DNA from: a virus
Taxonomy: Duplodnaviria > Heunggongvirae > Uroviricota > Caudoviricetes
IMG/VR virus record: IMGVR_UViG_2703718772_000017
Strand: one strand, 5' to 3'
DNA: 5,490 nt
Shown: piece after piece, positions 1 through 5,038 of the stretch
Numbering within the stretch: the stretch's first letter is position 1
How the letters are laid out: each line of letters opens with the position of its first letter
The notes under the pieces: generated by a model
Databases searched by the model: none
The model's input: only the letters and a program-made list of their open reading frames with translations
What the model was told of the DNA's origin: nothing
Made by a program: the position numbers and the translations under genes

Positions 1-233
1 TGACGGCGACGCCGCCCTGACAACATCATAATGTTTAAATGTCATTATTCCTCCCGGCCGGGATAGTGTATTAAATCAGATATGGAGTGGGCTGGCTGTA
101 GTCCGGAAGCCTGAATGACACTCGGGGACTACAGCCCAAGAAATGAAAAAAGGCCACGCAGTTGCGCAGCCTGATAAACCCTGGTTAAAATCCACACGAT
201 AACAACACAACAATATCAGTATCTCATGCTATT

Positions 234-258
234 GCCCGAACCCATTCGGGCATTTTTT
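234..258 (+). terminator. Rho-independent terminator for a rightward transcript entering from the left
   Basis: Stem GCCCGAA (234-240), loop CCCA, stem TTCGGGC (245-251), followed by ATTTTTT (252-258). Confidence 0.6.
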
Positions 259-264
259 ACCCAT

Positions 265-289
265 AAAAAAAGCCCCTCCGGAGAGGGGC
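265..289 (-). terminator. Rho-independent terminator ending the leftward replication-module operon
   Basis: On the minus strand: stem GCCCCTC (283-289), loop of 4 nt, stem GAGGGGC (272-278), then a T7 run (plus-strand A7 at 265-271). It lies back-to-back with the plus-strand terminator. Confidence 0.65.
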
Positions 290-492
290 ATGTTTGCATG
301 CACATTCTTTTTCTTGCATGGTGCCGGGTGCCTCCCGGTGAATTCAGTATCAGCACCTGAATCCGCGATTATCACATATACCTGGTTGCTGATTGCCCCT
401 CCGCACAGGGGGATTCACCATGCAGTAGTATTTTTAATAAACAGCAAATAAAAAAATCAAGCATTATGCAGGCTGTTTCTTTTTATCACCGG

Positions 493-624: not shown

Positions 625-1066
625 TGGTGATTCTCCAGACGAAGACCCAGAACACCGGCAATCTCTTCCAGCACCTTGCGCTCTTCCGGCTCAATTATTT
701 CTGACGTAAACGCGGACAGCGCAGGCTGATTACGCAGTACCTGTTCGATCTTCGATTTCTAGGAAGCCTCACATTCACCATCTGCACAGGCCACCAGGTA
801 GGCAGCATTAATAACCGCCTGTGCCAGATTTTGCGGGCATTTTGCCAGTCCTTTCGTGCCTGTTCAGACGGGAATAACCCGTAGCCGGAGTTGTATACAT
901 AACCACTGGCAACCAGCTCTCTGGCAAGAATGCTCATCAGATATCTTGTCGCACCTGTTTTAGCTTCCAACTGTCGTAATGTCTCGCGACCGCTCTGGCG
1001 CACAAGTTCGACCACCTGCTCTTTAATTTTTTTCCCGCTCTTCCTGTGTAAAAACTTTTGCCACAA
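621..1066 (-). pseudogene. Disrupted gene: N-terminal part in one frame, C-terminal part in another frame with an internal amber codon
   Basis: The 695..1066 ORF starts with TTG. Its N-terminal half (KIKEQVVELVRQSGRETLRQLEAKTGATRYLMSILARELVASGYV...) is protein-like, but its C-terminal half is W/R-rich and not protein-like. A different minus frame over 621-863 reads TGTKGLAKCPQNLAQAVINAAYLVACADGECEAS*KSKIEQVLRNQPALSAFTSEIIEPEERKVLEEIAGVLGLRLENHQ, which is protein-like, with TAG at 761-759 and stop TGA at 623-621. The frame switch appears to fall near a direct repeat ATTTTGC-GGGC-ATTTTGC (plus 827-844). Confidence 0.35.
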
Positions 1067-2860: not shown

Positions 2861-3268
2861 ATGAACGAGAAAACTTTAGGTCAACGCATTAGAGAAAGAC
2901 GTAAGCAGGTAGGCTTAAGTCAAAACGGTTTAAGCAAAGCTGCTGGCGTATCTGGCTCATCAATTTCATTATGGGAAAGTGACCATACAGCCCCGCGTGG
3001 GCAAAATTTGCATCGCCTCGCCGAGGTATTGCAATGTTCACCAACCTGGATACTGTTTGGCGACGAGGACAAAACACCAGCTCCCCCTGTTTCACTCGAT
3101 AGTGCCTTAGACTTATCGGAAGATGAGTTAGAGATGCTGCGTTTGTATCGCGCACTTCCTAAATCAGAGCAACAAGCACAACTCAGCGAACTCCGCGCCC
3201 GCGTTGAGAATTTTAATCGCCTGTTCACCGAGCTATTAGAGGCTCGCAAACGCAACAAGCATCAATAA
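2861..3268 (+). CDS. dicA: DicA-type HTH (XRE family) repressor, 135 aa
   Basis: N-terminal HTH (LGQRIRERRKQVGLSQNGLSKAAGVSGSSISLWESD). The sequence VLQCSPTWILFGDEDK and the exact length of 135 aa match DicA as recalled. Divergent from the cro-like dicC. Confidence 0.85.
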   Translation: MNEKTLGQRIRERRKQVGLSQNGLSKAAGVSGSSISLWESDHTAPRGQNLHRLAEVLQCSPTWILFGDEDKTPAPPVSLDSALDLSEDELEMLRLYRALPKSEQQAQLSELRARVENFNRLFTELLEARKRNKHQ

Positions 3269-3329
3269 TCATCCCTTCACAAAATTTTAAAGCCTTACAT
3301 TTCAATGTATTGGCTTTATCTTGCGCCAA

Positions 3330-3385
3330 TACTTGAGTTTTCTCATCAAAAAATCTTGACGAAAAATAATGAGAAAACTAAATTA
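3330..3385 (+). promoter_or_regulatory. Putative dicB-operon promoter flanked by operator copies
   Basis: TTGAGTTTTCTCA at 3333-3345 is identical to 2797-2809. An inverted copy of the 10-mer AGTTTTCTCA lies at 3370-3379. Between them is -35-like TTGACG (3355-3360) and, 18 bp downstream, -10-like TAAATT (3379-3384). Confidence 0.5.
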
Positions 3386-3460
3386 CCTCCATCAACACAC
3401 CGCACGGTGTTCTCAGCAAACAGTTCCGCTACCCCGGCGTTAAGGGGAAATGAGGTCAGC

Positions 3461-3613
3461 ATGGATACTATCGATCTTGGCAACAGCGAATCTCTGGTAT
3501 GTGGCGTGTTCCCCAACCAGGACGGTACGTTCACCGCGATGACATATACCAAAAGCAAAACGTTTAAAACCGAATCTGGCGCGCGTTGCTGGTTAGCCAG
3601 AAACACTGACTGA
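3461..3613 (+). CDS. ydfA: YdfA-like small protein (50 aa)
   Basis: Internal ATG at 3461 of the 3305..3613 ORF, with GAGG 5 nt upstream. MDTIDLGNSESLVCGVFPNQDGTFTAMTYTKSKTF... matches Qin YdfA as recalled. It is the first gene after dicA, as in Qin. Confidence 0.75.
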   Translation: MDTIDLGNSESLVCGVFPNQDGTFTAMTYTKSKTFKTESGARCWLARNTD

Positions 3614-3624
3614 TGAGGCTGACG

Positions 3625-3990
3625 ATGGAATTTAAAGATTTACCGTCTGATGTACAGAAAACAGCAGCTCATACATTGCATTCTGTGCTGCGAGAAATCG
3701 GGAAAGATATTGCAAGCGAGCCAGCAAAAGATCTGGCCCGGAAAATCAAGACCGCTTTCGTTGAGCTTTATAATGTTGGCACTGACTCTGAAACTGTCGA
3801 GACCAAGACCGTAAGTTCACCAATATTCTCACTTGAGCCAGGCGTATTAGCAGGTGAAATGTGCACCGAGATTTCCAGCGAACTGCTTCCGGTAATACGA
3901 GAAGCAATTTGCCGTCGCGGTTTGGATGGAAGTTACGATCATGACGTCCTGCAAGTTCTCAGGACAATGGTGACTTCACTGGGGATTTGA
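3625..3990 (+). CDS. Hypothetical protein (121 aa), possibly an unsplit YdfB/YdfC-like protein
   Basis: ATG at 3625 with GAGG 6 nt upstream; the ORF-track ATG at 3613 overlaps the ydfA stop and has no SD. Position between ydfA and dicF corresponds to ydfB plus ydfC in K-12 (about 42 and 72 aa as recalled). Confidence 0.6.
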   Translation: MEFKDLPSDVQKTAAHTLHSVLREIGKDIASEPAKDLARKIKTAFVELYNVGTDSETVETKTVSSPIFSLEPGVLAGEMCTEISSELLPVIREAICRRGLDGSYDHDVLQVLRTMVTSLGI

Positions 3991-4159
3991 TCCCTGCGTC
4001 CTCTAACCTTTTGATATAGCGGTCCTCCAAGAAGCGGTAAATTTTGTCGAAATCATCTTTCCCCTCTGGTTTATTCAGAGGATTACAGGACCCGTAAGTA
4101 GCGGCATACATTTCAACCGTTTTATCAAAAATATAAGAGACAAATTCTTCTTTAGTCAT
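3959..4159 (-). CDS. Hypothetical small protein (66 aa) encoded antisense within the dicB operon, in an AT-rich island
   Basis: ATG at 4159-4157 with AGAAGGAAA 7 nt upstream. Translation is MTKEEFVSYIFDKTVEMYAATYGSCNPLNKPEGKDDFDKIYRFLEDRYIKRLEDAGIKSPVKSPLS. A 96-codon open frame in AT-rich DNA is unlikely by chance. The 3' end overlaps the convergent ydfBC-like gene by 32 nt. Confidence 0.4.
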   Translation of the reverse strand: MTKEEFVSYIFDKTVEMYAATYGSCNPLNKPEGKDDFDKIYRFLEDRYIKRLEDAGIKSPVKSPLS

Positions 4160-4434
4160 ATAGATTTCCTTCTTGGTTATTCGGAATAAGAAGGATACCA
4201 CCTCGCCTGACGTGGTTAAAAGCAGGCACACAACACGAAAGCGCACGGCGAAGTTCGTCTCACTGTACGGTGTCGTTAAATTTAATTCGACCGTGCGCTT
4301 CCGGTTGTGGCAACCCGCGAAATGGCGCGGCGGTAAGTATGGCGGGGTTATTCCTTCCCCGTTGAGGACACCGGGTTGTCAGGTTGACCATACGCTTAAG
4401 TGACAACCCCGCTGCAACGCCCTCTGTTATCAAT

Positions 4435-4492
4435 TTTCTGGTGACGTTTGGCGGTATCAGTTTTACTCCGTGACTGCTCTGCCGCCGTTTTT
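4435..4492 (+). ncRNA. dicF: DicF small RNA (ftsZ-targeting sRNA) with intrinsic terminator
   Basis: TTTCTGGTGACGTTTGGCGGTATCAGTTTTACTCCGTGACTGCTCTGCCGCC followed by a T-run matches DicF as recalled. Terminator stem GGCGG (4451-4455) with CCGCC (4482-4486), then TTTTT (4488-4492). It lies immediately upstream of dicB. Ends are approximate. Confidence 0.75.
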
Positions 4493-4661
4493 AAAGTGAA
4501 TTTTGTGATGCGGTGAATGCGGCTAAGCGCACGCGGAACAGTTAAAACCAAAAACAGTGTTATGGGTGGATTCTCTGTATCCGGCGTTAATTGTTAACTG
4601 GTTAACGTCACCTGGAGGCACCAGGCACTGCATCACAAAATTCATTGTTGAGGACGCGATA

Positions 4662-4850
4662 ATGAAAACGTTATTACCAAACGTTAATACGTCTGAAGGT
4701 TGTTTTGAAATTGGTGTCACTATCAGTAACCCTGTATTTACTGAAGATGCCATTAACAAGAGAAAACAAGAACGGGAGCTATTAAATAAAATATGCATTG
4801 TTTCAATGCTGGCTCGTTTACGTCTGATGCCAAAAGGATGTGCACAATGA
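4662..4850 (+). CDS. dicB: Cell division inhibitor DicB (62 aa)
   Basis: ATG at 4662 with GAGGA 7 nt upstream. MKTLLPNVNTSEGCFEIGVTISNPVFTEDAINKRKQERELLNKICIVSMLARLRLMPKGCAQ matches DicB as recalled. It follows dicF. Confidence 0.85.
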   Translation: MKTLLPNVNTSEGCFEIGVTISNPVFTEDAINKRKQERELLNKICIVSMLARLRLMPKGCAQ

Positions 4851-5038
4851 ATTCAGCATTTGCGCTTGTTCTGACAGTTTTTCTTGTTTCCGGAGAGCCA
4901 GTTGATATTGCAGTCAGTGTTCACAGGACAATGCAGGAGTGTATGACTGCAGCAACCGAACAGAAAATTCCCGGTAACTGTTACCCGGTCGATAAAGTTA
5001 TTCACCAGGATAATATCGAAATCCCGGCAGGTCTTTAA
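4847..5038 (+). CDS. ydfD: YdfD-like small lysis protein (63 aa)
   Basis: ATG at 4847 overlaps the dicB stop as ATGA, indicating translational coupling. MNSAFALVLTVFLVSGEPVDIAVSV... has a hydrophobic N-terminus and matches YdfD as recalled. Confidence 0.8.
   Translation: MNSAFALVLTVFLVSGEPVDIAVSVHRTMQECMTAATEQKIPGNCYPVDKVIHQDNIEIPAGL

Follow-up and report, generated by a model that had tools for sequence, protein, structure and literature searches.

A small protein gene antisense to the dicB operon of a Qin-like prophage and its probable place among the accessory genes of lambdoid phages

The question raised by this locus is why a short open reading frame (ORF) should lie head-on against an operon whose transcript should cross it, and whether it is a gene at all. 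The DNA is a stretch of 5,490 bp (the window) from the virus record IMGVR_UViG_2703718772_000017. It belongs to a lambdoid E. coli prophage of the Qin/mEp460 type, of which it covers the immunity and early region. Inside its dicB operon, a 66-codon ORF on the minus strand (ORF66) converges on an ORF encoding a 121-residue protein (the partner). A previous inspection of the letters alone had proposed that ORF66 is a moron-type insertion or accessory cargo gene in an AT-rich island. We find that ORF66 is a real small protein gene under purifying selection, and we consider it probable that it is an independently evolving accessory gene of the moron type, located in the slot that sieB occupies in lambdoid phages.

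ORF66 as a small protein gene

The antisense ORF is present as first described, with a good Shine-Dalgarno (SD) sequence, a 7-nt spacer and an ATG start. The open-reading-frame listing extends it to a 95-residue form with a GTG start, but the conservation and the profile of its PHROG family both begin at the ATG (4159-4157). On the minus strand the SD reads AAGAAGGAAATCTATATG, with its core AAGGA at 4171-4167, about 7 nt 5' of the ATG. The product, MTKEEFVSYIFDKTVEMYAATYGSCNPLNKPEGKDDFDKIYRFLEDRYIKRLEDAGIKSPVKSPLS, has a mass of 7.7 kDa, an isoelectric point of 5.3 and a grand average of hydropathy of -0.68, i.e., it is hydrophilic. There are 65 ORFs of at least 30 residues in the window, so the length of ORF66 alone is not beyond chance and its status as a gene has to be decided by conservation.

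The ratio of nonsynonymous to synonymous substitution rates (dN/dS or omega), calculated pairwise by the Nei-Gojobori method against diverged homologues (54-91% identity), is 0.06-0.33 in every comparison. For codons 1-55, which no other ORF overlaps, omega is 0.06-0.25. The homologues keep a length of 65-66 residues, the ATG and the SD, and an SD core of either AAGGA or GGAGG is found in every lineage that carries the gene. Defects are few; the 59 loci on viral contigs include one with a stop at codon 65 and three that are interrupted by IS1. The conservation check proposed with the original prediction therefore came out in favor of the gene, which is intact in four diverged lineages with dN/dS well below 1. 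The three interrupted loci (L067 at about 4017, L068 at about 5046 and L069 at about 2002) carry IS1, with its InsA/InsB ORFs, after codon 15-16, and keep the initial 46 nt of the gene together with its promoter region. They were also considered as recombination breakpoints within ORF66, an interpretation that was rejected once they were seen to be IS1 insertions.

ORF66 is already annotated as a hypothetical protein, WP_000159335.1, by PGAP in O111 and in E. coli B REL606, and it already belongs to a PHROG; as a kind of gene it is ordinary. PHROG 34441 (function unknown) matches it end to end (E 1.5e-50) and is the sole PHROG match. The suggested homology search thus yielded this one family and no domain family, defense or structure match. 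Full ORF66 is present in 388-398 of 5426 complete E. coli genomes (~7%), nearly always at 99% identity or more, and the exact protein was found on at least 1000 contigs. Positions 3600-4660 of the window are 100% identical to E. coli O111:H- 11128 and many more strains, and the viable phage mEp460_ev081 carries ORF66 together with its surroundings. Full-length homologues show 86-91% identity in other enterobacterial prophages, and 73% in Cedecea; two prophages from metagenomes are at 57% and 54%. When 1.84 billion representative proteins were searched exhaustively with the profile, there were 10 matches at E <= 1e-10; the sole addition from the exhaustive search with the hidden Markov model was a more distant relative of 73 residues (P0022), and three weaker matches were judged spurious as repeat proteins. 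By these searches, the family is very small and confined to enterobacterial lambdoid phages and prophages. An identical ORF66 with its 121-residue partner is carried by E. coli B REL606 (L074, NC_012967.1 1624621-1624821), BL21, NEBExpress, C2566 and Rosetta2. Nothing was found in the literature on WP_000159335.1, 'Ybl81/82' or the REL606 locus tags, nor in a REL606 Ribo-seq supplement.

The AlphaFold2 (AF2) model of ORF66 has a pLDDT of 81 and predicts a two-helix hairpin (helices 3-22 and 31-54) with a less confident tail. The predicted fold is generic. It resembles the helix-turn-helix hairpin of the Rop/ROM-type proteins, which are of similar size (~63-66 residues), and like these ORF66 could dimerize to a four-helix bundle. 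The protein is hydrophilic and no long hydrophobic stretch was seen on inspection, so it is probably soluble and not a membrane protein. Pfam and NCBIfam gave nothing significant and PADLOC zero matches for either ORF66 or the partner, and comparison of the ORF66 profile with PDB sequences returned only noise at E > 0.7.

A mosaic cassette in the sieB slot

The window is homologous to K-12 Qin at 3400-3604 (ydfA) and again at 4218-4700 (dicF precursor, dicF and dicB), while the 613 bp between them show no BLASTN homology. This block stands in for ydfB, ydfC and their spacer. In K-12 these two genes likewise fill the interval from ydfA to the dicF precursor region of the dicB operon; however, their sequences are unrelated to the block and both have the orientation of the operon, and K-12 has no antisense gene there. 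The proposed comparison with K-12 thus shows that the ORF66 sequence is absent from Qin. Two parts of the original prediction need amendment. ORF66 does lie upstream of DicF, preceded by ydfA plus the partner ORF, but the latter is not the ydfBC-like gene it had been taken for, as BLASTP gives no alignment with K-12 YdfB or YdfC. An insertion of the moron type agrees with the sharp mosaic boundaries and with the absence from Qin, although the block replaces ydfB/ydfC and is not a simple insertion.

In other phages the homology is confined to the cassette. Prophages of the L010/L066 type match the window only at 3625-4246, i.e., the partner ORF, ORF66 and about 87 nt upstream of ORF66, and lack ydfA, the dicF precursor region and dicB. 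DNA homology to the window extends over 3966-4215 in L003 and 3868-4181 in the Cedecea prophage L004. The unit is therefore a mobile cassette that is not specific to the dicB operon, and ORF66 is variably present among otherwise homologous phages. Since the cassette also occurs in phages without dicF and dicB, it is not specifically tied to their control, and any effect of ORF66 on DicF or DicB would be a consequence of geometry and not a dedicated function.

The partner appears to be composed of two parts. Residues 1-55 (N-domain) match several other phage PHROG families of different lengths, whereas residues ~71-121 (C-domain, window ~3835-3990) co-occur with ORF66. This C-terminal domain of about 50 residues, with the pattern GE.LP.(I/V)..AI...G..G.Y......V...M..SLG, is common to the converging ORFs of the window type, L003/L006 and L004/L005. 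In tblastn searches it was found exactly at the convergent position in each case (E 4e-17 in L004, 8e-5 in L003 and 1.4e-5 in L006). With the domain present there in three of the four lineages, the two genes travel as one cassette. A search with the isolated C-domain gave no matches, probably owing to a word-index limitation, as the full-length partner did find matches. The joint between the two domains falls within a predicted disordered linker (residues 52-78) of a low-confidence model; with a pLDDT of 59 the AF2 model of the partner was too poor for a fold search, which was dropped. The 121-residue protein looks like a fusion, its C-domain being a stand-alone short ORF in Cedecea (L004 3733-3897). 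With no stop close by, this stand-alone ORF continues antisense to the entire ORF66 homologue (109 residues).

The 3' ends of ORF66 and the partner overlap, and codons 56-66 of ORF66 show zero synonymous changes among the E. coli-type variants, which is consistent with dual constraint. The last 7-8 residues of the partner (TMVTSLG) are encoded opposite PVKSPLS of ORF66, so their conservation is not independent evidence for the C-domain.

All four diverged lambdoid lineages have the ORF66 homologue on the strand opposite an early operon and convergent with one of the early genes. In L003/L006 it lies just past a CI-type (S24) repressor and a 129-residue ORF, antisense to the early-left genes, and overlaps that ORF by 56 nt. 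In L071 it follows the repressor and the first early gene (63 residues), with a 35-nt overlap. The Cedecea prophages L004/L005 have it between cro and a cII-like gene. Placement convergent to the first early-left gene of a pL-type operon is thus found for the window, L003, L006 and L071, while in L004/L005 the operon is early-right (pR-type) instead. In phage lambda, sieB (34482-35036, plus strand) converges on and abuts N (complement 35037-35438) inside the pL operon. By position, ORF66 occupies this sieB-type slot. Like sieB of lambda and P22, it is inside an early operon and convergent on an early gene beside a repressor-controlled promoter. It differs from SieB in having no sequence similarity (BLASTP against lambda SieB E 1.2, no Pfam match, different PHROG) and in encoding a hydrophilic, predicted helical hairpin of 66 residues instead of a protein of ~190 residues. 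Ranade and Poteete reportedly found, in 1993, that sieB is transcribed from a promoter of its own and exerts its effect from the prophage. What is modestly new here is the recurrence of slot and orientation in four lineages, the converging domain that travels with the gene, and the presence of both in REL606 and BL21.

Candidate role and competing explanations

How would a gene in this position be expressed? In K-12, DicF is processed from a polycistronic transcript that starts upstream of ydfA, and no internal promoter was found (PMC10448788). A match to the dicBp promoter upstream of ydfA is the presumed source of the corresponding sense transcript in the window. As this match, ydfA and the dicF precursor are kept and no terminator-like site lies between 3300 and 4700, the operon transcript must, by homology with K-12, cross ORF66 head-on, just as had been proposed.

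The near-palindrome reported to cover the SD at 4166-4196 is present, its coordinates being right to within 1 nt. In it TCCTTCTT (4167-4174) pairs with AAGAAGGA (4188-4195), around an inner TTATTC-G-GAATAA at 4177-4189. The suggested folding of the leader gave a predicted 8-bp stem on the ORF strand that buries the SD (-9.8 kcal/mol, z -1.9); 6 of 200 shuffled sequences fold equally well, the stem is kept in two of the four lineages, and its support is modest. The 5' arm of this repeat, UCCUUCUU on the minus strand, overlaps a candidate extended -10 element, TGGTATCCT, of the form TGnTAnnnT. The pattern TGNTANNNT has only three matches on both strands of the window, one of them at 4200-4192, and the candidate is kept as TGGTATCCT or TGATACCCT in the window type, L003/L006, L010/L066 and L004/L005. 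Across the same loci, G(T/A)GGTG(G/A)TA(T/C)CCTT is the only conserved upstream element. A weak -35-like TTAACC is located at 4219-4214, 16 nt upstream of the candidate -10. In L071 a perfect TATAAT about 60 nt upstream of the ATG takes the place of TGnTAnnnT.

The explanation we favor, and hold to be probable, is that ORF66 is a moron-type accessory gene of lambdoid phages in the sieB slot. It would be transcribed from its own weak extended -10 promoter (4200-4192) while the repressor silences the early operon, and its protein would be made mainly in the lysogen. When dicBp or pL fires, head-on transcription and the 32-nt RNA overlap would shut ORF66 off; conversely, the ORF66 transcript would damp leaky early transcription, and the overlap may make the antisense effects reciprocal. 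The ORF66 protein probably works by binding to a second protein and not as an enzyme or DNA binder. For this target the best candidate is the helical C-domain that is inherited together with ORF66 as part of the convergent early protein, even if we regard this particular interaction as doubtful. A lysogen-expressed gene on the strand opposite lytic genes is a typical kind of prophage accessory locus (PMC7067206). Prophage morons of this sort, such as STMMW_20121 of ST64B (Owen et al. 2020, PMC7067206), are likewise small, independently placed, mosaic-bounded and variably present. The suggestion of an accessory cargo gene thus fits the mosaic block, its sharp boundaries and the conserved protein gene, but the cassette is also found elsewhere and is not specific to the dicB operon.

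Several observations weigh against this explanation. Classical morons have a recognizable promoter and terminator and a clearly deviant composition. For ORF66, the candidate at 4200-4192 is a pattern match with a poor -35, a standard promoter scan gave no promoter there, and no terminator-like site follows the gene in the region scanned (3300-4700). The composition of ORF66 deviates only slightly, about 6 points of G+C; the predicted AT-rich island holds insofar as the gene has 40.8% G+C against 46.9% for the window, but it is marginal next to flanks of 45.8% and 53.6%, and dicB has still less (36%). Because of the overlap between the candidate -10 and the anti-SD arm, an own promoter and an SD-sequestering leader are mutually exclusive as drawn: with TATCCT as the -10, the 5' end of the mRNA would fall within the repeat, which rules out the SD hairpin. 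PADLOC, Pfam, NCBIfam, PDB and BFVD gave no match hinting at an activity. The converging ORF of L071 shows no relation to the partner profile (hhalign probability 0.1), and physical overlap alone could explain the joint travel of ORF66 and its partner.

The strongest competitor concerns the inverted repeat at 4167-4195, which might be a leader hairpin that sequesters the SD in an mRNA starting upstream of 4196, perhaps on the far side of the small hairpin at 4197-4216, with translation gated by it. We regard this as a tentative possibility, less likely than not. In every window-type variant, as in L003/L006, the SD is predicted to be paired with a probability of 0.83-0.86, and the change from UCCUUC/GAAGGA in the window to UCCUUU/AAAGGA in L003 is a compensatory one (C-G to U-A). 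The L010/L066 type has one-sided G-U changes in the SD stem, and a U-G pair of the L003 stem would be a C-A mismatch on the other strand. However, the hairpin is not formed in L004/L005 (z +1.0) or L071, z-scores where it is formed are only -1.2 to -2.5, and in the variant most frequent in E. coli the inner stem contains a mismatch. Moreover, its 5' arm overlaps the sole conserved -10-like motif, and no conserved promoter is found further upstream within the cassette. The adjacent small hairpin (4197-4216) was considered as a boxB/nut-like element and dropped, since it has a 10-nt loop and is not conserved in L004.

Another pertinent question is whether ORF66 and the partner C-domain form a dedicated two-protein module, as antagonist and target or in the manner of toxin-antitoxin pairs, with the early-operon product acting on induction and the lysogen-made ORF66 neutralizing it, or the reverse. 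In its favor, the two are found together in the window type, L010/L066, L003/L006 and L004/L005 although the N-terminal fusions and the operons differ, both are predicted helical hairpins, and the mosaic joint falls within the predicted disordered linker of the partner. We nonetheless think the module unlikely. In L071 the ORF66 homologue has a converging gene that is not detectably related, so the pairing seems frequent and not obligatory; overlapping 3' ends are hard to separate by recombination, and linkage need not be functional; about eight residues at the end of the partner are encoded opposite the tail of ORF66 and do not count as independent evidence; and neither protein matches a toxin-antitoxin or defense family in PADLOC, Pfam or NCBIfam. 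Less likely again is the further step, that the pair constitutes a previously unrecognized two-protein switch built of 3'-overlapping genes in the sieB slot. If true, lysogen-made ORF66 would restrain an early lytic protein or sense the copy of a superinfecting phage, and the pair would be a new module for exclusion or for control of lysis and lysogeny that is carried by REL606 and BL21.

It is equally hard to believe that the main function lies in RNA or transcription, with ORF66 as a roadblock or source of a cis-antisense RNA that limits leaky read-through into DicF, DicB and YdfD and the peptide being secondary. The convergent, 3'-overlapping geometry is found in all lineages, ORF66 follows directly on the first early genes, at the place of tL1/tR1 in lambda, and without a terminator behind it the transcript should run antisense into the partner gene. 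The downstream genes of the K-12 dicB operon (DicF, DicB and YdfD) are toxic (PMC10448788), which would fit. A parallel is offered by OOP and cII of lambda, where the transcript that converges on an early gene overlaps its 3' end by tens of nucleotides, and as there the ORF66/partner overlap could trigger cleavage of the sense mRNA by RNase III. Yet OOP is a non-coding RNA of 77 nt, whereas purifying selection on the reading frame (omega 0.06-0.33) marks ORF66 as a protein gene. The low omega of codons 1-55 shows that the protein itself matters, and the cassette is found also where no dicF or dicB follows. Finally, that ORF66 is a chance ORF or decaying remnant without function is effectively refuted: ORFs of its size are common in the window and the few defects noted above might suggest decay, but dN/dS is well below 1 and the gene, with SD and ATG conserved, is intact in four lineages (54-100% identity) and in some 390 genomes of E. 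coli.

If ORF66 is indeed expressed while the prophage is repressed, the list of small prophage proteins that target the host or other phages would grow by one. It sits in a well-studied regulatory neighborhood (the DicA/DicC switch, DicF and DicB), is carried by widely used E. coli B strains and by pathogenic O111 lineages, and its head-on placement could affect leakage of DicF and DicB. That the antisense slot beside the first early gene recurs suggests that cargo for expression in the lysogen is generally lodged there, in the place of lambda sieB. No current concepts are changed by ORF66; it adds one member and one testable two-gene cassette.

Features of the window and its surroundings

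The features discussed above are collected in Table 1.

Table 1. Positions of ORF66, its cassette and neighboring features in the window
Feature	Position	Strand	Remarks
Cro-like gene	2556-2810	minus	
DicA-like repressor	2861-3268	plus	HTH_3
dicBp-like promoter match	3356-3384	plus	upstream of ydfA; pattern match only
ydfA/DUF1391	3461-3613	plus	
Mosaic block replacing K-12 Qin ydfB-ydfC	3605-4217		613 bp; BLASTN boundaries
121-residue partner ORF	3625-3990	plus	convergent with ORF66; PHROG 33007; 'Ybl81' in one UniRef entry
3' overlap of ORF66 and partner	3959-3990	both	32 nt; partner TMVTSLGI-stop opposite ORF66 PVKSPLS-stop
ORF66	3959-4159	minus	66 residues; ATG 4159-4157, stop ends at 3959; WP_000159335.1, PHROG 34441
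SD region of ORF66	4167-4174	minus	AAGAAGGA on minus strand; also 3' arm of inverted repeat
Anti-SD arm	4188-4195	minus	UCCUUCUU on minus strand; 5' arm of inverted repeat; overlaps last 4 nt of candidate -10
Candidate extended -10 element	4200-4192	minus	TGGTATCCT (TGnTAnnnT); 33 nt before ATG; conserved
Small hairpin ACCAC-N10-GUGGU	4197-4216	minus	directly upstream of anti-SD arm; in window type and L003/L006, not L004
DicF small RNA	4436-4487	plus	Rfam RF00039, 72.5 bits, E 4e-15; downstream of cassette
dicB	4662-4850	plus	
ydfD	4850-5038	plus	

The segment upstream of DicF (4218-4435, plus strand) starts exactly where the ORF66 cassette stops. It has 53.6% G+C, is self-complementary and ~91-95% conserved with K-12, and should hold the RNase III site for the 190-nt DicF species (PMC10448788). 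From the 3' end of dicF to the start of dicB (4485-4694, plus strand) runs an STnc100-like match that lies under the gathering score of 47 (34.5 bits, E 7e-5), and this spacer may share ancestry or structure with STnc100. It is the second such match in the window; the first, at 259-449 (minus strand, 143 bits), directly adjoins a match to the anti-GcvB small RNA AgvB at 197-258 (plus strand, 96.5 bits), both from Rfam. These two prophage-borne small RNAs are unrelated to ORF66.

Motifs of the form TTGAGTTTTCTCA(A/T) flank the dicA-like gene, at 2797-2810 in the dicC-dicA spacer and at 3333-3346 upstream of the dicBp-like promoter. They are probably operators of the repressor, and none is close to ORF66. 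Control of ORF66 by the repressor was considered and dropped, as inspection of the sequence upstream of the gene found DicA-type half-sites (TTGAG...CTCAA) to be absent. To the left of the cro-like gene, the window (695-1066, minus strand) and O111 strain 11128 (L001 4575-4973) differ. An intact YdaT-like gene and a gene of the replication type (1105-2572) are present in the window where the O111 copy has pseudogene fragments, so the same immunity module is found in prophages at different stages of decay.

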